A DNA stretch of 64,000 nucleotides. It comes from an uncultured Candidatus Saccharibacteria bacterium. GTDB lineage: Bacteria; Patescibacteriota; Minisyncoccia; Phycocordibacterales; CAIRYW01. A program made the position numbers and the translations under genes. Of the stretch, positions 11,736-54,049 are shown piece by piece. Numbering within the stretch: position 1 is the stretch's first letter; each line of letters starts with the position of its first letter. Location of the stretch: positions 192 to 64,191 of the forward strand of contig CAYUPH010000003.1 in the NCBI GenBank assembly GCA_964446625.1, written 5' to 3'. The notes under the pieces were generated by a model that was given only the letters and a program-made list of their open reading frames with translations, did no database searches and was not told the DNA's origin.

Positions 11736-11736
11736 A

Positions 11737-13974: not shown

Positions 13975-14090
13975 TTTTCGATAAAAAATAGTACAATAAG
14001 AGCTAAACCATGTCAAACAAAAAGAGAGAAAATATCCTTATTTAGAGCCCTTTTTTAAAACAAGGAGGGTGTTTTTTCTGCGTTTTTTAA

Positions 14091-14704: not shown

Positions 14705-14721
14705 TTCTCGCTCCTAATGTC

Positions 14722-14755
14722 AAAAGCCGCTCCCTTGGGAGCGGCTTTTGCTTTT
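14722..14755. terminator. intrinsic terminator between convergent genes
   Basis: aaagccgctccc-ttg-ggagcggcttt followed by tgctttt. Confidence 0.65.
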
Positions 14756-14781
14756 CTAACAAATCAAGCAAGGAGCTTTCT

Positions 14782-15924: not shown

Positions 15925-16325
15925 AGAGTATGCTTTGACCCATTAAATCTCCATTAGTTATTTTTGTAAAATTCCCCTGCCAAAACAAAATAGGGAAAGG
16001 GAATTGGAGTTTTATTTTATTTTTGTTTTTAAATTATTTTTTGTGCACGTTGAAAGTTTTATTTAAAACTCTGTGAGAAAGGTAAAGGGAAGAAGAGGTT
16101 TTGTCTTTGTAGAAGAAGGAGGCTTCCTCTATAGGAGTGTGTCGCACAATATATCTTTTTATCAATAATATACCTAGGCAAAGAGGCTCTTTTCAAACAA
16201 ACCACTTCCCTCGCGCCAAAATTTTTTTTGGGCTGGAGTTTAAGGATTGAGAAAATATTTTTATTTTTTTCTCTTCTCCCCTTTGATCTACAAATAATTT
16301 TTTTTCTAAATTTCTACAAATATTA

Positions 16326-16366
16326 AAAAACCGGATTTTTGCATTTTTCCGGTTTTTCTCTTTTTT
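16326..16366. terminator. intrinsic terminator
   Basis: aaaaccgg-atttttgcatttt-ccggttttt followed by ctctttttt. Confidence 0.55.
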
Positions 16367-16387
16367 AGTGTTTTTGCTTCTTTTTGG

Positions 16388-16645
16388 CTATTTGCTTATG
16401 TTTAGACTGTGAATGAATTCTTTTGCTTTACCAAAGGCTAGGACTAGGAACTTCCAGCTTACTTTGAGTGCATCGACGAGAAGTTCGTAAAGATACTTTA
16501 GTATCTGCCAGATATCTTTTACAACTTCGCTGTTTATAATGTCTCTGAGTGTGATATTAAAAACAAATTTTAAAATAACAAGCGCAAGGACAATAAGAAT
16601 TATTTTTTTTATAAATCCTCGGCTGTAGTTATGTGCTGTATCCAT
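16388..16645 (-). CDS. hypothetical small membrane protein
   Basis: 85 aa with one N-terminal TM helix (IILIVLALVILKFVF). Confidence 0.3.
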   Translation of the reverse strand: MDTAHNYSRGFIKKIILIVLALVILKFVFNITLRDIINSEVVKDIWQILKYLYELLVDALKVSWKFLVLAFGKAKEFIHSLNISK

Positions 16646-16660
16646 GATGTATAAATTATA

Positions 16661-17965
16661 TTATATAGATCCTAAATATACCATCGGATCAAGATATGCT
16701 TTTGGATCAGCAATCGGTATTGTTACTCCTTGACAGTTTTTTGTTTTCTCATTTGGAATCACCATAACCCTGGTTCCTTCGGTTGCAAGGACTGTGAGGT
16801 GTAGATGTGGACCAGTGACGTAGCCAGTTCGTCCAGAGAGAGCGATTTCTTGACCAATTTTTACACTGTCGCCGGGACTTACTTCTATTGAAGAAAGGTG
16901 TCCGTAGAGTGTTGAAAGTCCGTTAGAGTGCTTTATAAGGACCCATTTTCCATACGAGTAACAACCGCTTTTGAGGTCTGTGTTTCCTGTTGCCCATACA
17001 GTTCCGCTTTCGGATGCAAATACTTTTGTTCCATCTGTGGCTCTTAGGTCAATACCATTGTGTGAGCCTGATGTATACAATCTTTGAGCAGCAACTGTTG
17101 AACCGAAGTATTGGGTAATATAAACGTTTTGAAGTGGCCATGCGAGTACACCTTTTTTTGCAGTCGGAAGTTTGTTTGGATCAATTGCAATTTTTAGTTC
17201 AGATTCGTATTGAAAGAGTTCTTTTTCAAATTGCTCTTTTTGTTTTTTCTTTTCGGCAACTGTTTGTTGATAGAGCGCTTCTTGGCTTTTTGTCTGCGAC
17301 AGAAGAACATTTTTTTGCTTTGCAGTTTCTAGAACAGATTGCTTCTTCCCTGTTAATTCTTTTTTAAATGTAGATAGTTCTTCTTTTTTTTCTACCTCTT
17401 CACCTTGTTTTGTTGAGAGTTCTTCCTGGAGGTTTTGAAGTTCGTGAAGCCGCGAGCGAAGGGTTGTACCAAGCCTTGTTACAGACTCAATGTATGCAGA
17501 AAAAGTGCCTAAATCTTTGTAAACAAGAAGATTTTCAATAGCACTTTGTTCATCTGTCATTTGAATGTTTCGAAGAGTGCTTTTCAAATAACTTTCTGTG
17601 TTAGTTATGTCGCTTTCTTTTTGGTTTATTTCACTGCCTAAATTTTGGATAGTGAGATTAGCTTTTTCAATATTCTTTTCGGTAAGTGCAATATCTGTCT
17701 CGAGCTTTTTCTTTGCGAGGTTTAGTTCGTTGATTGCATTTTGAAGAGTTTTTTTATTGCTTCCTACAACGAGGAGTTCGCTTTCTAGTTTTTTAATTTC
17801 CGCTTCTAGGTTTTTGATTTGATCATTTTTACTGTCAATTTTGTCTTGAAGCTCGCTTACAGACGCAGCTTCGAGGACCGCATTTTTTCCAGAATAAAAA
17901 AGGCATCCAGCAAAGATTGCAAAAAGCAGAGAAAGACAAAGTATTTTTTTATTTTTCTGCAGCAT
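16661..17965 (-). CDS. M23-family peptidoglycan metalloendopeptidase with N-terminal coiled coil
   Basis: C-terminal LytM/M23 motifs (HNGIDLRA…, …GPHLHLTV). Long coiled-coil N-terminus like EnvC. Confidence 0.75.
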   Translation of the reverse strand: MLQKNKKILCLSLLFAIFAGCLFYSGKNAVLEAASVSELQDKIDSKNDQIKNLEAEIKKLESELLVVGSNKKTLQNAINELNLAKKKLETDIALTEKNIEKANLTIQNLGSEINQKESDITNTESYLKSTLRNIQMTDEQSAIENLLVYKDLGTFSAYIESVTRLGTTLRSRLHELQNLQEELSTKQGEEVEKKEELSTFKKELTGKKQSVLETAKQKNVLLSQTKSQEALYQQTVAEKKKQKEQFEKELFQYESELKIAIDPNKLPTAKKGVLAWPLQNVYITQYFGSTVAAQRLYTSGSHNGIDLRATDGTKVFASESGTVWATGNTDLKSGCYSYGKWVLIKHSNGLSTLYGHLSSIEVSPGDSVKIGQEIALSGRTGYVTGPHLHLTVLATEGTRVMVIPNEKTKNCQGVTIPIADPKAYLDPMVYLGSI

Positions 17966-19307
17966 GTCGGATTCTGTTTAAGGTTTCCGTCTTGCCGATT
18001 GTACTGCTTATCTGAAATGGATCAGGGGACTTTTCAAGTCCAGAAAGAGCATAGCGAATCGCCCAAAGGACAATCCCCCTTCCCTTTTCTGTTGCAAAAT
18101 CCCATAGCGCGTTTTTAATATTTTCGGATGTAAATTCTTCTTCGGGAATTTCGGAAAGTAAATTTTCGCTTTGCTTTAAAAGTCCGCGCAATTCTTCGTT
18201 AGACACCTCTTTTCCTTTTCGTAGTTTTTCTGGACAAAGAAGCTCACTAATACTTTGGACCGCAGGAGCGCTATAAAAGAAATCAAAATCTCCTGCTTCA
18301 AACAAAGTTTTTACATCTCCCCACTTTGAAATTCGTTCAAAAATAATTGGAATTAGTTTTTCTGTGATCTTGTTTTCTTTGTATTTTTCTGGAATTGCTG
18401 AAAGGACGCCATCTTTTTTCTCCTCTTCAGGGAGAAGCTTCAAATGTTCTTTGTTTATATAATCAAGTTTGTCTCCAGTAAAAACAGCAGGAAATTGCTG
18501 AACACGCTCCAGTGAAAACTTTTGGATAAGTTCTTCTTTTGTAAAGATTTCTTGCTCTCCTCCTGGATTCCAACCAAGGAGAGAAATCGCATTGAGGAGT
18601 GCATCCGGAAGATAACCTTTATCGAGGTATTCACGGACAGGAACCGCACCATTTCTCTTGCCTAGTTTCTTTTTGTTCTCTCCGAGAATTGTTGGAAAGT
18701 GTCCGTAAAATGGAATCGGCGCACCGAGGGCTTCCAAAATAATCATTTGGCGGGGCGTTGAAGTGACATGGTCTTCACCTCGAAGCACATGAGTAATTCC
18801 CATAAGGTAGTCATCAACAACGACAGTAAAGTGGTAAAGCGGATCTGTAATTGACCGTGCAATTATAAAATCAATGTTTCCTTTGTCGTCTTTAAAGGAG
18901 TCAGAAGAAATTTTAATTTCACCTTTTACAAGGTCCTTCCATACAATATCTTTTGCGGTATTTCTAATACGAATTACTTTACCAGTTCCCGATTGGTTTT
19001 CTTCTGCTTCGTAGGCTTTATCTTCTTTGATAAGTCTGCGAAGTTCTTTTTCATAAATGTCTTTCCTTTGCGATTGGTAGTAGGGACCTTCGTCAAAATC
19101 GAGACCGAGGACCTTTAGAACCTCCATCTGTTTTTTATCGGCTCCTTCTTTGTTTCGGGCTGTGTCAGTGTCCTCAAATCGAAGCACAATTTCACCCTCC
19201 TTTTGCCTTGCAAATAGGTAGTTAAATACAAACGTTCGTACATTACCAAAATGCCACTCTCCAGTAGGTGACGGCGGAAAACGGACTTTTATCTTTTTTG
19301 CCTCCAT
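17949..19307 (-). CDS. gltX: glutamyl-tRNA synthetase
   Basis: RFPPSPTGEWHFGNVRT (HIGH region of class I GluRS) and KLGKRNGA in the KMSKS region. Confidence 0.85.
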   Translation of the reverse strand: MEAKKIKVRFPPSPTGEWHFGNVRTFVFNYLFARQKEGEIVLRFEDTDTARNKEGADKKQMEVLKVLGLDFDEGPYYQSQRKDIYEKELRRLIKEDKAYEAEENQSGTGKVIRIRNTAKDIVWKDLVKGEIKISSDSFKDDKGNIDFIIARSITDPLYHFTVVVDDYLMGITHVLRGEDHVTSTPRQMIILEALGAPIPFYGHFPTILGENKKKLGKRNGAVPVREYLDKGYLPDALLNAISLLGWNPGGEQEIFTKEELIQKFSLERVQQFPAVFTGDKLDYINKEHLKLLPEEEKKDGVLSAIPEKYKENKITEKLIPIIFERISKWGDVKTLFEAGDFDFFYSAPAVQSISELLCPEKLRKGKEVSNEELRGLLKQSENLLSEIPEEEFTSENIKNALWDFATEKGRGIVLWAIRYALSGLEKSPDPFQISSTIGKTETLNRIRHAAEK

Positions 19308-23260: not shown

Positions 23261-23998
23261 TTATCCATAGTGCGGGAGGCCTACTTCTTTGCTTTCAATA
23301 TGTATATCTTCAAAGTGAGCGTGTTGCGATACGTCTACTATCCCCTGCTTTACAAGTTCAAGCATGGCAAGGAAGCCTACAATCACTTCAACTTTCTGTT
23401 CTTTGCTAACGGGCTTTCCGCCTGTAAATTCTCGAAAACTCATTTTTATTGCCCCCTTTACTTTCTCTGCTAGTTTTTCAATCATTTCTTCAATCGTAAT
23501 CACTTTTTTAATTACAGCGGTCTGAATTTTTTCTTTTTTTGGAATCGAGTTAAGTAGTGTATGTAGAAGAAGACTTAGGGATACTTTTTCTATTGACTTA
23601 TGTGGCGCAAAAACAACTTCGCCCTTTGTTTTAAACTCAGCAAAGAAGATTGGGTTTTTCCCAAACCTCTCTTTTATAATTTCTCCGAGCTCTTTTGCCT
23701 TTTTGAGGAGCTCTAGTCTTTTTTCTAGCTGGTCTATACTCTGTTCTTCCTCTTCTGAAAGCGAAAGGTTTGGTAGTAGAGAACGAGATTTTATAAGAAG
23801 AAGAGTTGAGGCAATAACAATAAAATCAGTTTTCTCTTCAACTGCGTCCCCGGGAATAGTTTCTGCATAAGCAATAAACTCGTCTGTAATTTTTGAGAGC
23901 GAAAACTCATTGATAAGAAGCTTTCTCTTTTCAATAAGTGAGAGTAGTAAATCGAGCGGTCCTTCGAATTGTTCTGTTTTAATACGAAAGTCGTCCAT
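23261..23998 (-). CDS. scpA: segregation and condensation protein A
   Basis: FEGPLDLLLSLIEKRKL… is the ScpA kleisin signature. Confidence 0.8.
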   Translation of the reverse strand: MDDFRIKTEQFEGPLDLLLSLIEKRKLLINEFSLSKITDEFIAYAETIPGDAVEEKTDFIVIASTLLLIKSRSLLPNLSLSEEEEQSIDQLEKRLELLKKAKELGEIIKERFGKNPIFFAEFKTKGEVVFAPHKSIEKVSLSLLLHTLLNSIPKKEKIQTAVIKKVITIEEMIEKLAEKVKGAIKMSFREFTGGKPVSKEQKVEVIVGFLAMLELVKQGIVDVSQHAHFEDIHIESKEVGLPHYG

Positions 23999-24069
23999 TT
24001 GGACATTATATCATGGAGAGGATTGTGGCTTGAAAAAAGCTGAGTTTAATATATTCTAGCGACAGGGCT

Positions 24070-28769: not shown

Positions 28770-31424
28770 TTACTTCAAATCACTTAAATCTTTTTCTTTT
28801 GAAACTTTAAAGTTCTTAAATCCGATTGCCTTAAAGTGTTTATATGCCGACGCGATTTTTTGCTTCTCAGAAGGCCGCAGGTTTTCTAAGTCTTCAACAA
28901 ATTTAGTCTCCCGTACCAGATAAAGTATGTCTCCTTCCTCTTCTTTTACAACTATTGCCCAGTCAGGATTGTATCCACCAAGCGGGGTATCTATTTTAAA
29001 CCAACCAGGAAGCTTTGCGAACACTTTTACTCTAGTGCTATTTTGAAGATTTTGTGCAAATTCTTTTTCTTTTTCACTATCGAATGCTACATGAGAATAA
29101 ATAGACTTTTCAGTTTCTATTGTTTTATTTTCGTATGATTCAAATTCTTGCTCAAGGAGTTTCATTTCCCAATACTTTCCTGTTGGTACATACTGAAGCC
29201 CTTCATTTACAATGAAATCATGTTTACAACCTTCTATTATCACTATTGTACTTCGGATATACTCTTCTGGATTTTTTAAAAGAAGATCAAGATTTGATAC
29301 ACCAGAAAGTATTGAAAATACTGTTTGTTTTGTAAGACTTGTTTCTTGTGCAATTCTTTCAACCACGTTCCCAATGGAAGCTTTCCTATCTATAACCTCC
29401 CCGACACTTTGGTTTTGGTATACGGTTCGTATAGTACCGTTTTTATCCATTTCAAGTTGTACTTTATTTACCACAACAGTAGGTTTTGTGCTTGTGATAG
29501 TTTCGTTTATTTGAGAAATAATATTTTCTATCAACTTTCCTGAGTTAAGTAAAATATTATAGGTAGTCCTTTGCTTGATCTGGTTCCAGAGCGTTTCAAA
29601 ATCTGGGTGCATTTTTGTGAATTGTACAGTTACTAGCTTGTTTGCGTTTCCTGGTTTTGTCATAGTGTAGCCAGCTTCTGTATACTCTTGCTGAAGCGTA
29701 GAAGCAAATGACTCATAGCTTTCATTTGCAATCACTGTAAGGATGTTGATGTTTGATTCGTACACACGATTCCCTTCAGTATCTACTGGAAGCCGAAGCC
29801 CTCGACCAATTTTTTGACGCTTTGTAAAGTCATCATTTGTTTGGATAAGGGTGCAAATTTGGAATATGTTTGGATTATCCCAGCCTTCTTTGAGCGCTGA
29901 GTGCGAGAAAATAAATGCAAGTGGTTCCTCAAAAGAAAGTAGTTTTTCTTTATCTTTCATAATAAGGTCGTATGTAAGTTTTTCGCGCTTTGGTTCCGAG
30001 CTTACATCTGTAGTTTTTCTCCCTTCATGTTGTCGATCTTGAGAAAAATATCCATCATGCACACGAGTAATATCTACATTTTTAAATCGTTCATATCGAG
30101 TCTTCAAGCTTGCAAATTCTTCTTCAAAAATCTTTTTTATAATCGGATCTTCTCCCCGATAGTTTTTCACTTCATCAATGAAAAAAAGTGATAGTACTTT
30201 TATACGATCTCCGAACTGTTCTTGTTTTCGCATATGCGCTTTGATCGCCTCTCGTATTTGCGTACGAAAGAGTTCATCTCTATTTTCAGTATCATCAGCA
30301 GTTGAATAAGCTTTTCCATTAGAAAGCTCTACACCATCATGTTCACTTATTTCAGTCACCAAGAGATTAGCATATTTTTGATTCTTTTTTGATTTGTCAA
30401 AAAGGTCATCACCGCTTTTTATTTTTACTTCTCTGTGTTCATATTCTCCACTAGTGTTTTTCACCTCAAGTAGTACTTGTGCTGTGGGGTTTTCTCCTTT
30501 TTTGAAATTAATTTTCTTTACAGTAAAGACAAAATCGCTAGCACTTTGTACAGTCGCACCCCAGACTTCTACTTTTTTTACTAAACCTTTTGCATAGGCA
30601 TCCACAGGTGTAAGGCGGTATACGAGATTGTGCACTTCCTTATGTGTGGCACTATAGCGAAGCCGCACAAGGGGCTCTAAGAGCTTGAGTGCTTCTTTTG
30701 TTGCAGGACCTTCCATGTTTTGTGGCTCGTCCATGATCACGACCGGTTTAGTCTGTGCAATCATCTTTATATATGATTCTTCACCGTAAGTGTCATCACG
30801 ATCTGTCTGACGGAGAATAGCTGTTTCTGTAGTAAATGATTGTGTCGTCATGATCATGATTTGTATTTCTGGCGACTGTATGAAGTCTCGCACCAGGCGA
30901 AGTTTTGCGGAATCATAGGCAAAATATCCAAATGGCACATTGTCATAAATCTCACGAAAATGTTCTTTTGTCTGCTCTATTGTCTTTAGCACACCCTCAC
31001 GAATGGCCACGCTGGGAACAAGTATGATGAATTTTTTAAGTCCGTATTTCTGATTGAGTTCAAATATTGTGCGGAGATATACATATGTTTTTCCGGTCCC
31101 TGTTTCCATCTCTACAGTGAAATCTTTTAGGTTCTGTTGTTCTAAAAGTAGGTATCCACCATCTTCGAGCACCATAGATTCGCCACTCTGCGTAATGAGT
31201 CTTGAAACACTGCTTTCAATATTGTTTTGTTTTTGTATTTCTTGTAGATTCTCAATAATTCTGCTTTCATCAATATAAAGCTCGTTTGCTATGATTTGGC
31301 TTGGATTTTGAAGTTCAAATTCTATTTTATCTTTTTCAGTATTTTTTCCAGTATCAAAAAGATTAACAATCGCATTGATTGCGTCGAGTTGATAGTCTAG
31401 ATTTTTTGAGAATTTAAATTTCAT
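28770..31424 (-). CDS. res: Type III restriction endonuclease Res subunit
   Basis: SF2 helicase motifs (TGTGKTYVY Walker A; DEPQN motif II), C-terminal nuclease region, 884 aa. Start overlaps the stop of the preceding gene (TAATG). Confidence 0.85.
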   Translation of the reverse strand: MKFKFSKNLDYQLDAINAIVNLFDTGKNTEKDKIEFELQNPSQIIANELYIDESRIIENLQEIQKQNNIESSVSRLITQSGESMVLEDGGYLLLEQQNLKDFTVEMETGTGKTYVYLRTIFELNQKYGLKKFIILVPSVAIREGVLKTIEQTKEHFREIYDNVPFGYFAYDSAKLRLVRDFIQSPEIQIMIMTTQSFTTETAILRQTDRDDTYGEESYIKMIAQTKPVVIMDEPQNMEGPATKEALKLLEPLVRLRYSATHKEVHNLVYRLTPVDAYAKGLVKKVEVWGATVQSASDFVFTVKKINFKKGENPTAQVLLEVKNTSGEYEHREVKIKSGDDLFDKSKKNQKYANLLVTEISEHDGVELSNGKAYSTADDTENRDELFRTQIREAIKAHMRKQEQFGDRIKVLSLFFIDEVKNYRGEDPIIKKIFEEEFASLKTRYERFKNVDITRVHDGYFSQDRQHEGRKTTDVSSEPKREKLTYDLIMKDKEKLLSFEEPLAFIFSHSALKEGWDNPNIFQICTLIQTNDDFTKRQKIGRGLRLPVDTEGNRVYESNINILTVIANESYESFASTLQQEYTEAGYTMTKPGNANKLVTVQFTKMHPDFETLWNQIKQRTTYNILLNSGKLIENIISQINETITSTKPTVVVNKVQLEMDKNGTIRTVYQNQSVGEVIDRKASIGNVVERIAQETSLTKQTVFSILSGVSNLDLLLKNPEEYIRSTIVIIEGCKHDFIVNEGLQYVPTGKYWEMKLLEQEFESYENKTIETEKSIYSHVAFDSEKEKEFAQNLQNSTRVKVFAKLPGWFKIDTPLGGYNPDWAIVVKEEEGDILYLVRETKFVEDLENLRPSEKQKIASAYKHFKAIGFKNFKVSKEKDLSDLK

Positions 31425-32095
31425 TATTTTATTGAAATAATAATATTATTAATTTCATGTTCAAGTACTTTGATTATCTTTTCAATCAACTCGGTGTACA
31501 GGAAAGTTTTCTCCCTTGTTTGTTGTTCTCTTTGTTTTATCCCCGCTCCAGTTCTTGAAAAATTAAAATCAAATTCGTGCGCAATATTATTTCGGCTTCT
31601 AAATAGTGACCTGATTAGGTCCTTTTCTTCCTTAAATAATTCCTCGGGTAAACCAAATGCCTTTAGTATTTCTATAAGTTCTCCATAGTTTTGAAGACTG
31701 TGGTCTGTAAGAAGAGAGACTATCTTTTGACTTAACATATCATCTGATTTACCACTCATTAATATTTCAGACATGATTTTTAGATCAATACTATCGGTTG
31801 TATTACCAGATAATATCTCCTGTGTTTTTCCAATAAAATATTTATGAGATTTCTTGTTATTTTTTCTAACTAATTCAAGCCCATCTTCTACGATCTGTTT
31901 CATAAAAGAGTCTAAACCTGCACATCCTAAAACAATAATAGCTCGTAATAAATCTTGTTGTTGATCTGTTGCTGGACCCCTTTTGATTTTAAGATCGTCA
32001 TAGATATCAAAAAGAGAATCAATTGAATTATGAGTAGCGTCTTTTATCTTCCTACACCTGTCTAATACTTTTACCTTTTTTTCTTTACTCGCCAT
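31424..32095 (-). CDS. HEPN-like putative RNase (Abi-like), inserted in the Type III R-M operon
   Basis: All-alpha 223-aa protein with RSRNNIAHE (R-x4/x6-H) at residues 166-173 in a C-terminal helix. 3-nt gap to mod and 1-nt overlap with res. Confidence 0.45.
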   Translation of the reverse strand: MASKEKKVKVLDRCRKIKDATHNSIDSLFDIYDDLKIKRGPATDQQQDLLRAIIVLGCAGLDSFMKQIVEDGLELVRKNNKKSHKYFIGKTQEILSGNTTDSIDLKIMSEILMSGKSDDMLSQKIVSLLTDHSLQNYGELIEILKAFGLPEELFKEEKDLIRSLFRSRNNIAHEFDFNFSRTGAGIKQREQQTREKTFLYTELIEKIIKVLEHEINNIIISIK

Positions 32096-32098
32096 AGA

Positions 32099-33940
32099 TT
32101 AAACGACCTTCAAATTAATATTCCTTTCAATATTAACTTTTGTTGTATCATCGAGAGCATTATCAAAACATACAAAAATATCACCTGCCGTTAATTTTAG
32201 CTCTTCTACATCTTCTTTTGTAACCTTGTTTGAAAAACTAACAACGAGCTTTCTCTCACCTTCTGTGACAACCCAAGGCTTCAAACTACTCTTTTCCTGT
32301 TCGACTTTTGCATTTAGACCAAAACCTTCTTTTTCGAGGATTTCATACACAACAAACTTTTCATCGTAACTATCCACAAGCGGTTTCTCAATGAATAATT
32401 TTGATTGCTTTTTTAGCTCCTCAATATCATCTTCACTTGTGAGATCATTCCATTTTCGATAGTTTGAAGATGAAAGCTGAAAAGATTTAAATCCTGTATC
32501 ACCTTTTCCTATTTTTTCCCCAGCACGACGAATTCTTTCACGCGAAATTTCAGCAATATTTTTGTATCCTGCTTTGTAAGATTCACTTTTTTCGTCAGTT
32601 TCCTCCGGAAGTTGAACACAAATCCATTTTCTATTTCCCCCATCTTCTGCGTTCAAATCCATCACCGCGTGAGCTGTTGTTCCAGAACCAGCAAAAAAAT
32701 CTAGCACAATATCATCAGTATCATTATCTACTAGAGAGAAGAGGTATTTCAAAAGACGTACATTTTTTGGACTTTCAAAAATAGTGTTTTGGAATAAATC
32801 ATTGAGCTCTGTTGTACCCTCATTATTTATGCCCACTAGTTCACGCGGAATTACAGAAGAAGGAGCTCCTGTACCATCACCAAGATATTTTTTAATATAG
32901 ATATTCCAATTTGCTTGGTCACCTTTTTCATTAACTAGTGGTCCCGTTTTTGTTTGCTTAAAAACAACCATATTTTTTGCCAATGCTTCTTGAAAAGTAG
33001 GCTCTATAAATCTAAACAAATATCCTTCTTTTGGTTTTACCTTTTCTCCATCTGGACATTCAATAAAATATTTTTGATTTGTTCCCCAAGAAGAATTTTT
33101 CCATGCAAAATCTTTTTCTCGATAAATACCTACCGCGTCCTCTTTATTGTACTGTTTTTTCGCTTCCTCAGAGAGAGGTGCGTAGAAAGTTTCCGTCTCT
33201 AGTATATTTTTTGCATAACATATTACATATTGATGAGATTGGTTTACAAAATTACTTCTAATACCACCCCCTGTACTTGAGTGCCAAATAAGATTTGAGA
33301 TAAAATTCTCCTCACCAAAAATTTCATCCATTATCAATCGTAAATTCGCAACTTCATTATCATCAATAGATACAAAAATAACTCCGTCATCTTTTAGAAG
33401 ATTTCTTGCGAGAAAAAGTCGTGGGTACATCATTGTGAGCCAGTCACTGTGATATCGTCCATTTTTTTCGGTATTCGCGGTCATTTTGATACCACCTTTT
33501 GTTTGCCCTGTTTGTTCATAGTAGTCAGCAACATCTTGAGAAAAGTTATCTTTATATACAAAATCCTTACCTGTGTTATAAGGTGGATCAATATAAATCA
33601 TTTTGATCTTTTCTCGATAATGTTTTTGGAGAAGCTTTAAAACTTCCAGGTTATCACCTTCTATAAAAAGATTTTCTGTTTCGTTCCAGTTTTTTGATTC
33701 TTCAGGTTGCGGGATAAGGGTACCTGTAGAGGGTACACGAATTGCTTTAAATGAATTATTTCGTCCTGCCCAGCTGAGTCCGTATTTCTCAATATTCTCG
33801 TCCAGTTTGTTGTTGCCAAGTAAGGATTTTAGCTTTTCGATATCAAATTTGTCTTCTGAGAAGCATTCTGGGAAAATGTCCTTTAAAATCATAATCTTTT
33901 TGTCCAGGGGGTTGTTTGTTGTTGTGTTTACTTTTTCCAT
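32099..33940 (-). CDS. mod: Type III R-M N6-adenine DNA methyltransferase Mod
   Basis: DPPY catalytic motif (IYIDPPYNTGKDF) and AdoMet motif VLDFFAGSGTTAHAV. 613 aa. Confidence 0.85.
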   Translation of the reverse strand: MEKVNTTTNNPLDKKIMILKDIFPECFSEDKFDIEKLKSLLGNNKLDENIEKYGLSWAGRNNSFKAIRVPSTGTLIPQPEESKNWNETENLFIEGDNLEVLKLLQKHYREKIKMIYIDPPYNTGKDFVYKDNFSQDVADYYEQTGQTKGGIKMTANTEKNGRYHSDWLTMMYPRLFLARNLLKDDGVIFVSIDDNEVANLRLIMDEIFGEENFISNLIWHSSTGGGIRSNFVNQSHQYVICYAKNILETETFYAPLSEEAKKQYNKEDAVGIYREKDFAWKNSSWGTNQKYFIECPDGEKVKPKEGYLFRFIEPTFQEALAKNMVVFKQTKTGPLVNEKGDQANWNIYIKKYLGDGTGAPSSVIPRELVGINNEGTTELNDLFQNTIFESPKNVRLLKYLFSLVDNDTDDIVLDFFAGSGTTAHAVMDLNAEDGGNRKWICVQLPEETDEKSESYKAGYKNIAEISRERIRRAGEKIGKGDTGFKSFQLSSSNYRKWNDLTSEDDIEELKKQSKLFIEKPLVDSYDEKFVVYEILEKEGFGLNAKVEQEKSSLKPWVVTEGERKLVVSFSNKVTKEDVEELKLTAGDIFVCFDNALDDTTKVNIERNINLKVV

Positions 33941-34093
33941 AATAAAAGTGTAGCATAGTTTTATAAATAATATTAAGGGGGTCCGAAACGGAGAGGTGTG
34001 AGTTAATAAACAGTTAATCTGGGTGTGTTACAGTGCGAAATGGTATCCGAACACGACTCAATATGTGCCGGAGCGCTCATTACTTCTCATCAC

Positions 34094-34384
34094 ATGAAAC
34101 TACTTACTGCTCTAGCCTCATTGGCCCTTGCCTGCATTTTCGTGAGTTTGCATGCAAGTGCGGAGACTCCCACCTTCTTCCCTTTTCCTCCCAAAATGAC
34201 AACCTATCTTTCCGACCTGTCGGTTATATCAAATCCAGGTTGGTTCGCTATTACCCTCCTCTCTATTGCACTGCTCGCTGTTGTGGGTAGAAGGCTTGCA
34301 GAAAGGCGGAAACAGGCGAAAAGGAAAAAGGGTAAATCATGGGTGAGGTTGGCTACTCCGATTGAGGAGCCTGGGTCTCATTGA
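34094..34384 (+). CDS. small secreted/anchored protein with a C-terminal TM plus basic tail
   Basis: Signal peptide MKLLTALASLALACIFVSLHASA; C-terminal …SNPGWFAITLLSIALLAVVGRRLAERRKQAKRKKG. Start moved to the internal Met. Confidence 0.4.
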   Translation: MKLLTALASLALACIFVSLHASAETPTFFPFPPKMTTYLSDLSVISNPGWFAITLLSIALLAVVGRRLAERRKQAKRKKGKSWVRLATPIEEPGSH

Positions 34385-34392
34385 TTTGTCGA

Positions 34393-34425
34393 GCCGGTTT
34401 GCTACGCAAACCGGTTTTTTTATTA
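34393..34425 (+). terminator. intrinsic terminator, cassette copy 1
   Basis: gagccggtttgc-tac-gcaaaccgg followed by T7. Near-identical to the copy at 35238. Confidence 0.7.
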
Positions 34426-34573
34426 TCTCCGAGGAAACTCTTTCTAAGAAGGGTGCTCTAAATCAAATATAGACGAAATAAGAAAAATATGTTACAGTAT
34501 CCCTTGGTATCCGAGCCGCTTGTTTCAAACTACTAACCTCACAAGCGTATCGGAGCGCTTGTTTTTTGATATC

Positions 34574-35227
34574 ATGAAAAAGATTAGCTCTCTTCTGGCA
34601 GCCTGTGCTGTATGGATTCTTGCCTTTTTTGGTGCCGCTGCTTCGGCTGCGACTGTGACAGGCCTTTTCCTTGCCCCTAGTCCTGCTGGGAGCTATGTTA
34701 CCCAAAATCAAACTTGGGTTCATTTGGAAGGTGTCAATGGAAACACCTTCTATACTTCCAGCACTTACTACCCTGGTGACCACACTTTCTGGATGCAAAT
34801 GCTCCAGGGTCAGTCCTTTTACTGGGATGTGGAGATTCGGGCTCCATATGATACCCACCTCACAATAGGATCCTTTGTCGGCACTAGATTCCCGTTTCAA
34901 GAAAAATTCGATATGGGGGTCAGTGTGACCGGAAATGGTCGTGGGTCAAATACCTCAACCAGCTTTACTAATGTGCTGGAAGCTAACTACTTCGGGGAGA
35001 ACATCGTCAACTTTGCGGCTGACATTTTTCTTTTCGAAGAAACGTGGGATGTTAAGGAGGGTCTAAATTTTTCAACCGACCGGGCCTTGTTCGCTTCGGT
35101 TCGGTATAACTCCCATATCCCTCTCACCATAGCTGTGCCGATCCCTGAGCCGGGACCAACGGTTTTTGTGATAATCGCAGTGATTGTCATAGGGGTTGTA
35201 GTTTTCAGAAAAAGGCCAACTTCATGA
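34574..35227 (+). CDS. secreted protein with a PEP-CTERM-like C-terminal sorting signal
   Basis: Signal peptide MKKISSLLAACAVWILAFFGAAASA, beta-rich body, C-terminal …AVPIPEPGPTVFVIIAVIVIGVVVFRKRPTS (PEP motif, TM, RKR). Confidence 0.45.
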   Translation: MKKISSLLAACAVWILAFFGAAASAATVTGLFLAPSPAGSYVTQNQTWVHLEGVNGNTFYTSSTYYPGDHTFWMQMLQGQSFYWDVEIRAPYDTHLTIGSFVGTRFPFQEKFDMGVSVTGNGRGSNTSTSFTNVLEANYFGENIVNFAADIFLFEETWDVKEGLNFSTDRALFASVRYNSHIPLTIAVPIPEPGPTVFVIIAVIVIGVVVFRKRPTS

Positions 35228-35237
35228 CGAAATTCTC

Positions 35238-35272
35238 GATCCGGTTTGCGTAGCAAACCGGTTTTTTTAATT
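35238..35272 (+). terminator. intrinsic terminator, cassette copy 2
   Basis: gatccggtttgc-gta-gcaaaccgg followed by T7. Same stem as the 34393 copy with the loop triplet inverted. Confidence 0.7.
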
Positions 35273-35705
35273 ACTTACTTACAATATAAAGAATATAAAG
35301 GAGGAGTCCCCACCAAGATGTAAAAGAAACGAGAAAAGAAATAGTAATTTGTACTTGGAGTTTAGTCGGAAGAAGCTCACTCTCTCTTCCCTCTTTTTCT
35401 CTACCAAGGAGAAAAGGACTCACAACAAATGAAAGAAACAGTCCGTTCAAAATCATAACGCCAAGAACTCCTAGGATGTGACCAAACTCTGTGTTAGTAA
35501 GAGTGTTTGTTTTGAAAAGTAAAAGTGAACCTCCTAGAACTAAAACAGTACCAAGCCAAATAAGAGGCTTTGTTACTTTGTGCGTACGAATTGTCGCTTC
35601 GGTCCAATATGAAGATTTGCGTCCAAGGAATCCGTGTATATCAATAACAGTAACTGCTCCAAGTCCGACTACAAATCCTGCGATTGTGACGAATAGTGGA
35701 AGCAT
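35271..35705 (-). CDS. 4-TM membrane protein, paralog A
   Basis: 144 aa with 4 predicted TM helices and conserved His (DIHGF, RTHK, FGHILG). Paralog of 36104-36526. Confidence 0.4.
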   Translation of the reverse strand: MLPLFVTIAGFVVGLGAVTVIDIHGFLGRKSSYWTEATIRTHKVTKPLIWLGTVLVLGGSLLLFKTNTLTNTEFGHILGVLGVMILNGLFLSFVVSPFLLGREKEGRESELLPTKLQVQITISFLVSFTSWWGLLLYILYIVSK

Positions 35706-36103: not shown

Positions 36104-36526
36104 TTACAAGAAAAATGCTAATACGAACGCACCTGCCCAGCTAATGCTTGATACTGCGCCAGAGATAAAGAGCGGAATTTTTTCTTTTGTAGTGAGGTCT
36201 TTAAACGCTTTTTGTGTCGACACTCCAAGGAATCGCCCGATGAAAAATCCGTTTACAGTAAGTGCAAGCACAAACGCCATCTTTCCCAAAAAGGCTGGAC
36301 TGTCGTGGAGTAAATATCCACGCTTATCCCAAAAGACCAAAACCCCTGAAACGATAGTTAGAATAAGTCCCGTCCACACAAACCTGTGTGCCTTTCTAAT
36401 TTTGCTTTCCTCTACCCTCTCCACCTTTCCTCTAAACCAATTAAATCCCGCATGGTCTGCATAAAGAATAGAGATAAAAGAAACAACTACTCCAGCGATA
36501 TGAAAGAAAAAGAAAATGTCTTCCAT
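36104..36526 (-). CDS. 4-TM membrane protein, paralog B
   Basis: 140 aa with same architecture and conserved His positions (ADHAGF, KAHRF, LLHDSP). Confidence 0.4.
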   Translation of the reverse strand: MEDIFFFFHIAGVVVSFISILYADHAGFNWFRGKVERVEESKIRKAHRFVWTGLILTIVSGVLVFWDKRGYLLHDSPAFLGKMAFVLALTVNGFFIGRFLGVSTQKAFKDLTTKEKIPLFISGAVSSISWAGAFVLAFFL

Positions 36527-37043: not shown

Positions 37044-37994
37044 TTAATTTAAAACTCCTATCGCTCTCTTTGCCTCCGCAAGCTTCTCGTTTGCAATATC
37101 TGTCGCTTTTCTTTTTCCTTCCTCCAAGATTTCTTTGAGACTATTTTCGTCCCTTGCAATCTCTTCTCTTCTTTGCCGGAGTGGTGCGATAAATGCTTTT
37201 ATATCTGAAATAAGGGCGTCTTTGAGTGCTTTGTACTTCCCTTTGTTTTCTTCGTAGAGAGGTCTTAGCTCGTCGTCTTTTTTGAAAAGCTTATGAATTG
37301 CGTAAACATTTTGCGGAAAGCCCCCTTCTGAGTCTGTGACAATAGTGAGGACTTTCTTTTCGATTTCCTCGTCACTTGCAAAAAGCGGTATGTAGTTTCC
37401 ATAGCTCTTGCTCATTTTTCTACCATCAGTACCTGGAACAATCGCAACATCTGGAACGATTTGCTCTGTGGGAAGCTTAAAAGTTTCTCCGAATTTAAAA
37501 TTAAACTTGTCTGCTATGTCTCGAGCGTACTCAACATGCTGTTTCTGGTCCTGGCCAACTGGAACTGTATCTGGGCTGTAAAGCAAAATATCTGCCGCCA
37601 TGAGGACGGGATAGTTAAATGTACCCATTGAAACCTCTGTTCCCTTCGCTTCAGCATCTTTGTATGCGTGTGCTCGCTCCAAAAAAGGGACAGTAACAAG
37701 AGTGTCGAAAATCCATGCAAGCTCTGTGTGCGCAGAAATGTCAGACTGCTTAAAGAGTGTTACTTTTTTTGGATCTAGTCCAATCGCAAGAAGATCGATG
37801 AGGAGATTTTTTGAAAGTGTCTGCATCTCCTCTTTGTTTTGTATAAAATTGAGAGCGTGGTAGTCGGCGATCATGGCGAAAACTTCGTTTTCGCTTGAAT
37901 TCGCCATGTCTACCCATTGCTTAAGGGCACCAAAATAGTTCCCAATGTGTGGGCTACCTGTTGGTTTTATGCCGGAAAGGATTCGCTTTGCCAT
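37044..37994 (-). CDS. trpS: tryptophanyl-tRNA synthetase
   Basis: ILSGIKPTGSPHIGNY (HIGH) and RKMSKSYGN (KMSKS). 316 aa. Confidence 0.9.
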   Translation of the reverse strand: MAKRILSGIKPTGSPHIGNYFGALKQWVDMANSSENEVFAMIADYHALNFIQNKEEMQTLSKNLLIDLLAIGLDPKKVTLFKQSDISAHTELAWIFDTLVTVPFLERAHAYKDAEAKGTEVSMGTFNYPVLMAADILLYSPDTVPVGQDQKQHVEYARDIADKFNFKFGETFKLPTEQIVPDVAIVPGTDGRKMSKSYGNYIPLFASDEEIEKKVLTIVTDSEGGFPQNVYAIHKLFKKDDELRPLYEENKGKYKALKDALISDIKAFIAPLRQRREEIARDENSLKEILEEGKRKATDIANEKLAEAKRAIGVLN

Positions 37995-38023
37995 GAGTCA
38001 ATTATATCAGAAAAGGGCACAGT

Positions 38024-39715
38024 CTACACCATGGCTTCAATACCTGGTTTTGGTGTGGCATGGAGCGCTTCGAGCTCAATATAGAAAGTAGAACCTTTTT
38101 CCTTTCCAGGAGATTCTGCCCAGATTTTGCCACGCTGAGCTTCGATAATCTTCTTGGCTACATAGAGACCGAGTCCGGTTCCCATAATATTTGCTTTTCC
38201 TGCTTCAGGAGCACGGATAAATTTCTCAAAAAGTCGAGGCATTACTTCTGCTGGAATTCCAATACCTGTGTCTTTAATTGAGATAAGAAGGTTATCTCGG
38301 TGGTTTCGCTCTATGTGAACATGAATACCTCCTTGCTTTGTATATTTTGTAGCGTTGTCGATTAGGTTTGAAATTACTTGTTTTATTTTTCCTTGATCTG
38401 CGTGAACCATGTACTCTTTTGTATTGTCAAAATCAAAAGAAAGTTTAAGGCTTGCCATTTCAACAGTTGGCATAAGTTCGTGGATTACGGATTCTGTAAG
38501 TTCTTTTAGGTTGAAATCAGAGAAATCGTACTTCATTCTACCTTGCTCAATTCGTGACACATCGAGGTAGTCTCCTACGAGAACGACGAGAGCTTGAGTT
38601 GATTTATACATTGTCTCTACCGCTTCCCTCACCTCAGGAGACAAATTTCCAAAGTCCCCTTCTAGAATAAGTGATGCGTAGCCTTTAACAGCAGTAAGGG
38701 GTCCTCGAAGCTGGTGGCTTGCAAGAGAAATGAATTCTGATTTTTGTTGGTCGAGCTCGCGCAGTCTTGCGTTTGTTTTCTCGAGGTTGGTAGTTAAATC
38801 CTGCAATTGCTCTCGTGTTTTAATCTCCTTTGCAACACTTTTAATGAGAAAGTACCCAAAAGAGATTGATAGTAAAAGATTAAAAGTGTTTAATATTTGG
38901 CTTGCTGTATCTTGGATAAAAAAGAATTGAAATGCCACGATTAAGGAAAGTGTGATAACAAGAACTTGTGCTCCAAATAATTTTATATTAAATATTTTGT
39001 ATCTTACAATCAAAAAAGCTATAACACCTATGAAAATTAAAATACCAAAAAGCCCGTATTGCTCATATGTATAATTGCCTGTTAAGTCAGAAATAAATCC
39101 AACTATATAAAAGGATCCAATAAAACTAACAAGGCCAAGAGAAAGTACTTTTGTTTGAAACTTCTCCTTTGCTTCTGCTTTTCTATAATGAAAAACTAGG
39201 AAACCGGCTGTTAAAACCATTAAAATTATTTTAAGTACGGAAACATAGTCAGCATATAAGTTTTTTTCAACAGCAATACACTCTTCAATGTTATAGGCAG
39301 TTATATTGAATTGTGAGTTGGCAAGCAGAAAAACTGGTGCGTATATAATTACTAAAAAAGCTTTGTAACGTTTCTCTAGGTCTTTATTTGTTGAGAAGAC
39401 ATATACAAAATAAAAGACAAGAAGAAAAATAAGAACACTTACAGTTTCAATAGGAGCCCAAGCTGCCATTAGCTTGCTTCCACTTATATATTGAAACCAG
39501 ATATTTAAATCAAGGAAAGACCAGATTGAGAAAGCGAGTGAAAGACTGAAAATGATTTTTGCGAGAAGAGATTTGCGGTCCTTTAAAAAAATAAAAAAAC
39601 CTAAAAGCAAGGTAAACACAGCTGTGCCAATATGCGAGTATAATAAAATTTCTTTCAAACCTCCAACATATTCTGCGCAATACTTTATGTTTTCTGCTAA
39701 GTTGTATTCAAGCAT
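38024..39715 (-). CDS. sensor histidine kinase with polytopic N-terminal domain (orphan)
   Basis: About 8 TM helices, HisKA H-box SHQLRGPL and HATPase_c G-boxes. No response regulator adjacent. Confidence 0.8.
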   Translation of the reverse strand: MLEYNLAENIKYCAEYVGGLKEILLYSHIGTAVFTLLLGFFIFLKDRKSLLAKIIFSLSLAFSIWSFLDLNIWFQYISGSKLMAAWAPIETVSVLIFLLVFYFVYVFSTNKDLEKRYKAFLVIIYAPVFLLANSQFNITAYNIEECIAVEKNLYADYVSVLKIILMVLTAGFLVFHYRKAEAKEKFQTKVLSLGLVSFIGSFYIVGFISDLTGNYTYEQYGLFGILIFIGVIAFLIVRYKIFNIKLFGAQVLVITLSLIVAFQFFFIQDTASQILNTFNLLLSISFGYFLIKSVAKEIKTREQLQDLTTNLEKTNARLRELDQQKSEFISLASHQLRGPLTAVKGYASLILEGDFGNLSPEVREAVETMYKSTQALVVLVGDYLDVSRIEQGRMKYDFSDFNLKELTESVIHELMPTVEMASLKLSFDFDNTKEYMVHADQGKIKQVISNLIDNATKYTKQGGIHVHIERNHRDNLLISIKDTGIGIPAEVMPRLFEKFIRAPEAGKANIMGTGLGLYVAKKIIEAQRGKIWAESPGKEKGSTFYIELEALHATPKPGIEAMV

Positions 39716-39722
39716 ACTACAA

Positions 39723-40496
39723 TTATATTACAACATTTAGCTTTTCAATATGTCTACCTGTCTTCTCATTATCATACGAAAGCCAATGCATATGTTTTTC
39801 AACTTCAAGGGGTAAGAGTGGGACGATTAGAGGCTTAACACCAAAAAATTTTTCTATAGCTAGTATGCTCGGAAGAACTTTAGCGTTGATAAACTCTCCT
39901 TCTTCTCGGTCTTCTAGTAAGTAGTTCTCAAATAATATTCCGTGGTATATAAATAGTGAAAGGAAATAAAAATAGTAATACCCTCCTTTTAGTCTTGTTA
40001 AGTTAAACCAACTTGTGATGTCTTTTATCTCCATTTTGGAATAGAGACCCTCTTCTTTCAGGAGATTTAGATGGAATTCTCTCAACGGCTCACCCCAAAG
40101 TGTATTAATCTCTGAAAATAGACTTCCTTCATACTCATTAAAATCAACAATTCTTTGAGAGTGAGTTTCGTATACTCCATTCTTGTTTCTTTTATAAAGA
40201 TAAAGTTTACAAAGATGATATTTGTCTGGGTTTCGTGAGACAAATTTATCATCATACTCTAAAAAGCAGGGTTTTAGGTCAATACTTGTGGCTAAGTCAA
40301 TAAAGTATTTACATTCAGTATTAGGAGTGGGAATACATCTACTAAAAAAACCATATTTCTGATCTATTTCAAGAAAAGTGGGAAAATCGTTACCAAAAAA
40401 GTCAATAATTTTTTTTCTTAGAATTGGGTCGTTTTTCCTTTTCTCCAATTCTTTTTGTGCTTCTTCAATCGTTATGTATATGTCCTCTACTTTCAT
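39723..40496 (-). CDS. hypothetical protein (257 aa)
   Basis: Intact ORF 7 nt downstream of the kinase. No motif. Confidence 0.35.
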   Translation of the reverse strand: MKVEDIYITIEEAQKELEKRKNDPILRKKIIDFFGNDFPTFLEIDQKYGFFSRCIPTPNTECKYFIDLATSIDLKPCFLEYDDKFVSRNPDKYHLCKLYLYKRNKNGVYETHSQRIVDFNEYEGSLFSEINTLWGEPLREFHLNLLKEEGLYSKMEIKDITSWFNLTRLKGGYYYFYFLSLFIYHGILFENYLLEDREEGEFINAKVLPSILAIEKFFGVKPLIVPLLPLEVEKHMHWLSYDNEKTGRHIEKLNVVI

Positions 40497-52844: not shown

Positions 52845-54011
52845 TCAGAGTGTTTTAAGAAAAAGAGAGATTGCACCAAGAATAGGATGTGGTTCTTTTG
52901 AACTTGAAACCACAATATAGTTTTTTACATCCTCAGTTGTAAAGTAACTTACTGAAAATGTGTCCGATGAAAAAGATTTGTTCGCAAATGTTTTCTTTGA
53001 AATCCATGTTTCAAGTATCTTTGATTCCGCATCTTTTCCTGCGATAATCACCTCTTTTGGCAAAAGGAACGTTTCTCCAAGGCGCCAAAATGCGTCAGTT
53101 AAAGCCACATCCCATTCGCTTTCTGCTTGTGACAAAATCTGAGTTAGTTCGGTTTCTGCAGATGCTTCGAGAGTACCTTCTTCATGTAGGGATAAAAGTG
53201 AGAGTACGGTCTCCTTTTCTTTTTGGAGCGCTGAAGCAATAACTCGAACCGGAAAATGCTTACCAAAAGGAATAGAAACACTGCCTTTTGGCACTCCTCC
53301 GCGGACAAGCAGAAATTCTGAAACTTCGTGCTCTGGCATACAAAGCACGAAATCTTTTTTGTGTAGAAGGTTTACTACAATTGGAAAGAATGCCATTGGA
53401 ATAGTGTGAAAATTTACCAGGAGGTTAGGAAAAGCGAGGTTTATAACCTCTTTAATTTTTACAGCAACATCTTCGTTCATTGTACTGATGAAGCTTGTGA
53501 CAGTAATACTGCTTGTTTTCTTTCCAATCGAATTTTCTATTTCGTAGCCATTTGCTTTAACGGAAACAATTGCTTCTTCTATGTGAAGTAGGTTTGGTTC
53601 CTTTTCCTTAAGATGCTCCGAAGCGGTTTCTCGAATGAGTTCATTTGTAATAATGAAAGGTTTGTCTTCGGTTTTTGTTGAAGTGACGATTTTTGAAATG
53701 TTCCACGGAGAACCTAGAAAGACATACGCGGTTTTAATATCACCAAACTTAACACCCTTTGCTTTTACTTCTTCAATTCCCTCTTTTTGAAGTTTTTCGT
53801 TTTCCCTTTTTAGAGACGCAAGCGAAAAACTTAGGACACTCCCCTCGGTTTTAGCCTCAGAGAGAACCGCGCTTTGGTGTGCGTATACAATTTCTGGTTT
53901 CTTGTTTGGTTTTAAACGCACAATACCAGTGATCGCCTTTCCGCTTTCAAGTGCAAAGACAAGAGCAGTCTCCTCTTTTCCATTTTTTGTGGAATGTAAA
54001 AAATCGAACAT
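52845..54011 (-). CDS. hypothetical protein (388 aa)
   Basis: Intact ORF. No motif. Confidence 0.35.
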   Translation of the reverse strand: MFDFLHSTKNGKEETALVFALESGKAITGIVRLKPNKKPEIVYAHQSAVLSEAKTEGSVLSFSLASLKRENEKLQKEGIEEVKAKGVKFGDIKTAYVFLGSPWNISKIVTSTKTEDKPFIITNELIRETASEHLKEKEPNLLHIEEAIVSVKANGYEIENSIGKKTSSITVTSFISTMNEDVAVKIKEVINLAFPNLLVNFHTIPMAFFPIVVNLLHKKDFVLCMPEHEVSEFLLVRGGVPKGSVSIPFGKHFPVRVIASALQKEKETVLSLLSLHEEGTLEASAETELTQILSQAESEWDVALTDAFWRLGETFLLPKEVIIAGKDAESKILETWISKKTFANKSFSSDTFSVSYFTTEDVKNYIVVSSSKEPHPILGAISLFLKTL

Positions 54012-54049
54012 ACGAAAATTATATCATACGAAAGCAGTGACTTTCTTCT

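Follow-up and report, generated by a model that had tools for sequence, protein, structure and literature searches.

We analysed a 64,000-nt stretch of DNA (hereafter the window) from contig CAYUPH010000003.1 of assembly GCA_964446625.1, and focus here on two tandem open reading frames (ORFs) that encode putative exported membrane proteins: gene 1 (34094-34384, 96 aa) and gene 2 (34574-35227, 217 aa). They are the sole + strand genes within a ~49-kb stretch of - strand genes. Each appears to be framed by its own promoter, leader and terminator. The features of the locus are:

34007-34034, + strand: putative promoter of gene 1, with -35-like TAAACA (34007-34012), a 16-nt spacer and a TG-extended -10 element TGTTACAGT (34026-34034)
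34040-34093, + strand: predicted 5' untranslated region (UTR) of gene 1, ~54 nt, without a Shine-Dalgarno motif; GGTATCCGA (34042-34050) pairs with CGGAGCGCT (34069-34077) around a 4-bp inner stem
34094-34384, + strand: gene 1, 96 aa, with a signal peptide at residues 1-23 (cleavage between HASA and E), a 27-aa ectodomain, a transmembrane (TM) helix at 51-65 and a 31-aa basic cytoplasmic tail, all as predicted
34391-34421, + strand: intrinsic terminator 1, with a 12-bp stem, loop TAC and T7
34470-34498, + strand: putative promoter of gene 2, with -35-like TAGACG (34470-34475), a 17-nt spacer and a TG-extended -10 element TGTTACAGT (34490-34498)
34505-34573, + strand: predicted 5' UTR of gene 2, ~69 nt, also without a Shine-Dalgarno motif; long hairpin at 34510-34554 or, alternatively, a terminator-like hairpin at 34541-34562 followed by T6 (34563-34568)
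34574-35227, + strand: gene 2, 217 aa, with a signal peptide at residues 1-25 (cleavage between AASA and A), an all-beta ectodomain at ~26-185, Pro-Glu-Pro (PEP) at 191-193 (nt 35144-35152), a TM helix at 196-211 and Arg-Lys-Arg (RKR) at 212-214, all as predicted
35241-35268, + strand: intrinsic terminator 2, with a 9-bp stem, loop GTA (reverse complement of the loop of terminator 1) and T7

The locus is not an assembly artefact, as it was found again, with identical flanks, on at least 12 contigs that come from several independent samples.

A first-pass annotation of this DNA had proposed that the two genes share a duplicated expression framework, and the repeats bear this out. Upstream, TGTTACAGT-N6-TGGTATCCGA is present at 34026-34050 and 34490-34514 and, at up to 3 mismatches, nowhere else in the 64 kb, far above the chance expectation of 0.01 matches. 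Further downstream in both leaders lies CGGAGCGCT, at 34069 and 34551. On the 3' side, the terminators begin 6 and 13 nt past the stop codons of genes 1 and 2 and contain CCGGTTTGC-TAC-GCAAACCGG (34394-34414) and CCGGTTTGC-GTA-GCAAACCGG (35241-35261), each directly followed by T7. This near-identical 21-nt palindrome was present in two copies only in the 64 kb, even when 2 mismatches were allowed (0.00 expected from shuffles), and the likeness between the two terminator regions spans 37 nt at 86% identity. Both palindromes scored as intrinsic-terminator-like; with 6 GC pairs, a 3-nt loop and T7 each, they have the properties of intrinsic (Rho-independent) terminators. Reading them as integron attC sites was rejected, as each is a 21-nt perfect hairpin with T7 and thus a plain terminator.

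The loop triplets of terminators 1 and 2 are indeed inverted relative to each other in the window (TAC/GTA). However, the loop varies between strains, and this does not fit a designed feature: the strain contigs L004 and L005 carry TAC/TAC and contig L088 carries GTA/GTA (terminator copies at L004 4626-4646 and at L088 11-31 and 844-864). Hence, the 3-nt loop of a perfect 9-bp hairpin changes orientation independently at each terminator. Such flipping is known for small loops enclosed by perfect inverted repeats, and we read it here as a polymorphism between strains without functional distinction.

Gene 2 at first appeared to be an orphan, with a word-indexed search returning the query alone. 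This was overturned by an exhaustive phmmer search of 1.84 billion cluster representatives, which revealed 572 relatives at E<=1e-3, with 112 of them at E<=1e-10. Many of them are ~200 aa long, align with gene 2 from the signal peptide to the C-terminus and share the motifs TRFPFQ, GNGRGxNTS, FAxDFxQxEE and GSxRYNSxIP. Most end in canonical PEP-CTERM tails such as VPEPSSFALAGLGVGLVFIRRKRM; out of 32 aligned family members, 25 matched the PEP-CTERM model TIGR02595 (E<=1) and 22 matched PF07589. The family domain occurs either singly with a PEP-CTERM tail or as 2-7 repeats in giant adhesin-like proteins, and multi-domain relatives also carry Calx-beta, PKD, TSP3, Big_9 (Ig-like), BACON and He_PIG domains. 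A metagenome search with the family alignment yielded no more than 6 short contigs.

The family ectodomain is not covered by any Pfam or NCBIfam model. AlphaFold2, when supplied with the alignment, predicted the gene 2 protein at a mean confidence (pLDDT) of 90.7, with ten strands flanked by one helix at each terminus and residues 2-22 helical; from the single sequence, the pLDDT was 38. Nothing significant emerged from Foldseek comparisons with PDB and BFVD or from a profile search against PDB sequences. According to the predicted structure, the gene 2 ectodomain (34649-35130) and its homologs P0003-P0151 would form a large, undescribed family of extracellular all-beta domains. The closest described candidate is NF038129, an uncharacterised PEP-CTERM family of ~194 aa that resembles gene 2 in size and layout. 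Weak matches from 23 of the 32 family members and from P0053, the sister allele of gene 2 described below, extend into its domain (profile positions 100-194). However, all scores were far below the cut-off (best ~20 vs 65 bits) and gene 2 itself did not match, suggesting that NF038129 is at most a distantly related sister family. A distant homolog with a PEP-CTERM signal, P0152 (L090/L091, JGI 3300056624, 2.48-Mb contig, locus coordinates 4000-19000), is located in an integron-like chromosomal cassette array of ~30 short same-strand ORFs with regularly spaced, recurring 121/131-aa ORFs, a YoeB/YefM toxin-antitoxin pair, acetyltransferases and Imm-NTF2.

The N-termini of both proteins have the MK(K)-hydrophobic-ASA pattern, in agreement with the signal peptides assigned to them at first pass. 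For gene 2, inspection indicates a Sec signal peptide made up of MKK, a hydrophobic stretch and a cleavage site between ASA and A, and homologs align over it. LAAC in this signal peptide was considered as a lipobox and dismissed, since its Cys (residue 11) precedes a hydrophobic stretch and the ASA site and is not conserved in homologs. The C-terminus of gene 2 reads AVPIPEPGPTVFVIIAVIVIGVVVFRKRPTS, as first quoted, and shows the layout of PEP-CTERM proteins, with P191-E192-P193 followed by a TM helix and then an Arg/Lys cluster at the C-terminus; the stop comes 3 residues after RKR. In the family alignment, P191-E192 coincides with the PEP columns, which hardly vary. The likeness to the known system (TIGR02595/PF07589, EpsH/XrtA) therefore covers signal peptide, C-terminal Pro-Glu-Pro, hydrophobic helix, basic cluster and stop, as well as full-length homology to proteins that pass the models. 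The TM helix of gene 2 is atypical in being Ile/Val-rich and not Leu/Gly/Ala-rich. The sister allele P0053 passes TIGR02595 at 20.8 bits, which means that the cassette lineage carries a bona fide PEP-CTERM signal by the NCBI criterion. Taken together, homology, PEP register and sister allele support that the gene 2 tail derives from a PEP-CTERM signal. The PEP-CTERM-like character proposed at first pass holds on these grounds, but the tail of gene 2 itself stays below the TIGR02595 cut-off.

The host is of interest here, since it differs from the Gram-negative bacteria with exopolysaccharide (EPS) loci in which this system is known. The 80 best genome matches (57-76% identity) of the tryptophanyl-tRNA synthetase (TrpRS) gene located 2 kb from the cassettes were all Patescibacteria/Paceibacterota or unclassified bacterial metagenome-assembled genomes (MAGs), with no other phylum named. 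This identifies the host, as judged from these matches, as a Paceibacteria-type, ultra-small bacterium of the candidate phyla radiation (CPR; Patescibacteria). To our knowledge, CPR bacteria lack an outer membrane. Haft and colleagues are said to have described PEP-CTERM/exosortase systems, in 2006 and 2012, in bacteria with outer membranes and EPS loci. Here, an outer membrane is not expected and the neighbours of the cassettes include no EPS genes. Exosortase and sortase families were detected neither in the window, as had been stated at first pass, nor within 10 kb on either side of it (precomputed Pfam annotations and a separate check of the first 6.6 kb; ~84 kb in total). A literature search yielded no report that links exosortase with Patescibacteria.

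Because an outer membrane is not expected and the inspected DNA contained no exosortase, the PEP-TM-RKR segment of gene 2 is most likely a plain type I membrane anchor in this organism. The gene 2 product would thus be a Sec-exported, single-domain, all-beta surface protein and, after cleavage of the signal peptide, the segment would hold its domain outside the cytoplasmic membrane. Alternatively, an exosortase- or archaeosortase-family enzyme encoded elsewhere in the genome might cleave the gene 2 protein at PEP and attach it to an envelope acceptor. Such sorting would be consistent with the PEP in register with canonical homologs, with the sister allele that passes TIGR02595, and with the retention of PLT-AVPIPEPG (75% aa) between two alleles whose cores share 21% identity; homolog P0013, with a canonical tail, also lies among compact housekeeping genes resembling those of a small genome. 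We nevertheless consider functional exosortase-type sorting rather unlikely, given the lack of a candidate enzyme in the window and its flanks, the sub-threshold tail and atypical Ile/Val-rich helix of the window allele, and a system described for outer-membrane bacteria with EPS loci and without a literature link to Patescibacteria; moreover, the conserved segment could be a mere recombination flank. An even bolder proposal is that Paceibacteria-type CPR run a genuine PEP-CTERM/exosortase-like sorting pathway without an outer membrane, displaying hypervariable ectodomains that are exchanged between conserved leader/signal-peptide and PEP-anchor/terminator frames. This would amount to a host-contact variation system in episymbionts, and we regard it as distinctly improbable.

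The sister allele P0053 is encoded on the 880-bp contig L088 and has the same terminator on both sides. Its leader is 74-96% identical to that of gene 2, whereas the core coding DNA shows only 14-46% identity. At the protein level, identity amounts to 56% in the signal peptide, 21% in the core, 75% in the C-edge including AVPIPEPG, and 38% in the TM helix and tail. The two alleles show that the gene 2 ectodomain is hypervariable between strains while the frame for its expression and anchoring is conserved. In addition, the 10 nt before the upstream terminator of L088 match the 3' flank of gene 2 and not that of gene 1, so that this genome may, tentatively, carry two gene-2-type cassettes in tandem.

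A second sign of mosaicism lies within gene 1. A comparison of 34128-34275 of the window with 3513-3660 of L004 shows ~20% nucleotide divergence, mostly synonymous, that affects the leader and the 5' two-thirds of gene 1. This divergence ends abruptly at ~34276; from there through gene 2, the window is 100% identical to L004 and L005. The sharp boundary inside gene 1 points to recent recombination between strains. The locus resembles mosaic surface-protein loci, in which adhesin or pilin alleles are replaced through homologous recombination, in its conserved leader, signal peptide, C-edge and terminator around a nearly unalignable core, in the sharp recombination boundary and in the strain-dependent restriction-modification (R-M) island next to it. 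It differs from them in that only two alleles were seen, with no silent donor copies, recombinase or invertase and no evidence of programmed switching.

Gene 1 requires a different assignment. Its C-terminus had been taken as sorting-signal-like, so that both genes would encode sorting-signal surface proteins. This stands for gene 2, by homology, but not for gene 1, whose C-terminus had been cut short. Since 31 further residues (RRLAERRKQAKRKKGKSWVRLATPIEEPGSH) follow the hydrophobic helix 51-65, the helix is internal, unlike those of sorting signals. Neither the full protein nor the TM segment alone matched any NCBIfam model, the sequence contains no LPXTG motif, and the word-indexed search gave no homologs. 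Judged by this topology, gene 1 encodes a small bitopic membrane protein and not a sorting-signal substrate. The 32 codon differences between the window and L004, located in codons 12-60, comprise 24 synonymous and 8 non-synonymous changes, demonstrating that gene 1 is under purifying selection and is a real gene.

This selection also bears on whether gene 1 is a non-functional, decayed gene-2-type cassette that lost its ectodomain. Consistent with decay, gene 1 has the same framework as gene 2, lacks homologs and is usually left uncalled by gene callers. There are also weak local matches between the two proteins, namely ISNPG vs IPEPG and, at the end of gene 1, LATPIEEPG vs IAVPIPEPG (6/9, E 0.057), and these resemblances to the PEP segment may go back to a shared ancestral cassette or to chance. 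However, the excess of synonymous changes, a frame that is intact across strains, and an intact signal peptide, TM helix and basic tail make decay very unlikely. We therefore retain gene 1 as a functional gene for a small bitopic membrane protein.

Expression of the two genes also appears to be unusual for this genome. Almost no Shine-Dalgarno motif precedes the genes of the window. In nine genes, a -10 box of the TGnTATAAT type ends exactly 6 nt before the ATG, four times as a perfect TATAAT, and several more genes have a -10 box 7-11 nt before the ATG, often TG-extended (examples at 11250-11256, 23998-24010, 37994-38006, 39715-39727, 54011-54023 and 56986-56998). The organism thus appears to translate mostly leaderless mRNAs without Shine-Dalgarno motifs. 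Genes 1 and 2 have no -10 box beside the ATG and carry TGTTACAGT instead, 59 and 75 nt upstream. Of this first shared block, four copies are available (TGTTACAGT, TGATACAGT, TGTTACAGT and TGTTAAAGT), and TGnTAnAGT is kept in 4/4. The strain variant TGATACAGT differs from TGTTACAGT at the 'n' position alone, and the L088 allele keeps TAGACT-N17-TGTTAAAGT. Because of this conservation and of the TG-extended -10 boxes elsewhere in the genome, the first block, which the first-pass annotation had counted as part of an RNA leader, is more probably a promoter element. If so, transcription would start near 34040 and 34505, placing GGUAUCCGA at the 5' end of each mRNA. Each gene would then be its own transcription unit, with a TG-extended -10 promoter (TGnTA[C/A]AGT), a leader and a strong intrinsic terminator.

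The same block could also be parsed as part of TGTTAC-N16-CGA(A/G)C, with a -35 and a -10 element recognised by an extracytoplasmic function (ECF) sigma factor, and genes 1 and 2 would then constitute a small envelope-stress regulon. SigX/SigW-type promoters have the form TGTAAC-N17-CGAC, and both motifs and spacing are similar here and identical in the two leaders. However, L088 has TGTTAA, without the AC of the -35 core, yet keeps the -10-like TAAAGT. The sole sigma-related gene seen encodes a 343-aa Sigma70_r4 protein, the motif has no further copies in the 64 kb, and the genome's own promoters are TG-extended -10 boxes. An ECF-type promoter is therefore highly improbable, and we keep the TG-extended -10 assignment.

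A reading of the upstream region as an N-terminal extension or upstream ORF of gene 1, starting at GTG 34025 or ATG 34040, was rejected. In the four copies, the codon at 34040 is ATG, TTG, TTG and CCG, and a hand count of the in-frame extension from GTG 34025 gave 5 non-synonymous vs 1 synonymous change between strains, indicating that it is non-coding.

Within the predicted UTRs, GGUAUCCGA can fold back on (U/C)CGGAG(C/U)GCU; the inner stems are not the same, with 4 bp in leader 1 and 7 bp in leader 2. Leader 1 folds at -8.0 kcal/mol (z 0.12) and its strain variant at -12.5 kcal/mol (z -0.71). The long hairpin of leader 2, with an outer stem UCCGA/UCGGA and an inner stem GCCGCUUGU/ACAAGCG, reaches -15 to -18 kcal/mol (z -1.85); its stems are identical in L088 and the loop differs. 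A terminator form of leader 2 (ACAAGCG...CGCUUGU followed by U6, just before the AUG; -10.3 kcal/mol) is mutually exclusive with the long hairpin. With regard to known RNA families, Rfam covariance models gave only noise over 33900-35300 at E values up to 10, and neither an Rfam match at the gathering threshold nor a tRNA was present in the window; the leaders thus gained no support as a known cis-regulatory RNA. As in attenuators and 5'-terminal stabiliser stem-loops (ompA-type 5' hairpin), both mRNAs would carry a stem at their predicted start, and leader 2 has alternative antiterminator/terminator hairpins. Unlike these, the leaders match no known RNA family.

A shared cis-regulatory RNA in the leaders is plausible. 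In its strongest form, a trans factor (protein, small RNA or metabolite) would bind the 5' box GGUAUCCGA and turn leader 2 from its read-through hairpin into the terminator hairpin, thereby co-regulating the two genes. The two mutually exclusive hairpins of leader 2, which both use ACAAGCG and differ in stability as given above, would suit such a switch, as would the L088 copy with identical stems and a variable loop, the same two boxes flanking different inner stems in leaders 1 and 2, and the exceptional status of leadered mRNAs in this genome. Leader 1, however, has neither a terminator nor significant stability, weak matches to RNA families amounted to noise, the shared stem does not vary and hence shows no covariation, and common descent of a duplicated promoter and UTR suffices to explain the similarity of the leaders. 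The pattern was also not found in relatives, genome representatives, JGI metagenomes or IMG/VR. We therefore regard such a riboregulator as a doubtful proposition. The most economical interpretation is that the leaders represent a duplicated promoter and UTR, with a 5' stem-loop that would stabilise the mRNA and possible attenuation in leader 2.

The searches for further cassette copies, covering the window, genome representatives, metagenomes and IMG/VR, yielded none beyond contigs of the same species level and L088. In detail, the promoter pattern had 0 matches in the contigs of genome representatives, the terminator pattern had 0 matches in JGI metagenomes and IMG/VR, and among 100 loci the promoter and terminator patterns were found solely in the contigs of the same species level and in L088. 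An 18-mer of leader 2, GGTATCCGAGCCGCTTGT, was exact in 9 viral contigs (L092-L100, IMG/VR), where it lies inside a conserved phage coding gene with unrelated flanks; this was dismissed as coincidence.

The composition and distribution of genes 1 and 2 set them apart from their surroundings. Their GC contents of 0.488 and 0.476 are the highest of the 53 window genes (mean 0.403, standard deviation 0.035), and their GC3 is also highest. Both genes are missing from the closest relative, which keeps the HK-TrpRS-cyt-b5-TM140 synteny, and in 80 related Patescibacteria loci the syntenic site held no homolog of either. Housekeeping genes surround the cassettes, together with a type III R-M system:

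28770-33940, - strand: type III R-M island directly upstream of the cassettes, with Res (884 aa) and Mod (613 aa) on either side of a HEPN RiboL-PSP gene

This island has a GC content of 0.31-0.36 and varies by strain. Some strains have it; L004 does not, and there an Lnb_N gene directly adjoins the upstream region of gene 1, with the junction a few bases from 33941. High GC and GC3, opposite orientation, predicted leadered transcripts, absence from the closest relative and the adjoining strain-variable R-M island together suggest that genes 1 and 2 are a lineage-specific islet in a recombination-prone spot, probably acquired horizontally. The gene 2 family has members in a Rhodocyclaceae MAG, in the setting of an ordinary free-living bacterium and in the integron-like cassette array mentioned above. 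Other members are found on low-GC contigs without Shine-Dalgarno motifs and with TG-extended -10 promoters, which may themselves belong to CPR.

Two further observations concern the surroundings. On the - strand, 35271-35705 and 36104-36526 encode small multi-TM proteins without a Pfam match, on either side of a 129-aa gene beside the cassettes; they are weak paralogs (26% identity, E 3e-4), and only 36104-36526 is kept in the closest relative, L006. A leucyl-tRNA synthetase-like gene (61540-63999, - strand) runs past the end of the window and is complete in L107 (6428-9928, 1166 aa). In the precomputed Pfam list, it has a NUDIX domain match between two tRNA-synt_1 halves.

As a whole, the locus is best explained as an acquired two-gene islet for membrane-anchored surface proteins, and we put the probability of this explanation at roughly 0.6. 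Several points weigh against it. On the protein side, the gene 2 tail alone scored 11.4 bits on TIGR02595 (cut-off 16, E 0.47) and the full protein gave no match, and a hidden Markov model of the homologs' tails gave gene 2 9.7 bits vs 24-47 bits for the training tails. The exosortase scan covered ~84 kb, out of at least 354 kb for the genome, and the exact conservation of PIPEPG between divergent alleles could come from selection for processing rather than from shared ancestry of the flank. As to the leaders, promoters and start sites were assigned by sequence pattern, leader 1 folds no better than shuffles and leader 2 modestly better, and the shared stem does not vary among the four leader copies, giving no covariation support, with inner stems that do not align. 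Finally, the case for transfer is built on composition, strand and absence from relatives, with no donor found, and the contigs of the nearest single-domain homologs are low in GC (37-39%) vs 47-49% for the islet.

Within this explanation, the gene 2 protein is likely to act in adhesion or host contact, because its domain is found again in giant proteins, alongside Calx-beta, PKD, TSP3 and Ig-like modules, and because its core is hypervariable within a conserved frame. The cassettes belong to the known PEP-CTERM kind in an unexpected host and do not constitute a new kind of system. The work also brought to light a large domain family with at least 572 cluster representatives and a confident all-beta prediction, which lacks a Pfam or NCBIfam model as well as a detectable relative in PDB. 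In an organism that appears to have mostly leaderless, Shine-Dalgarno-less genes, genes 1 and 2 are conspicuous for their predicted leaders. Cells of CPR bacteria are attached to those of a host, and the proteins at this interface are little known. A surface protein of a PEP-CTERM family in a CPR genome is unexpected and would point either to gene flow from neighbouring bacteria or to an unrecognised sorting pathway in CPR.

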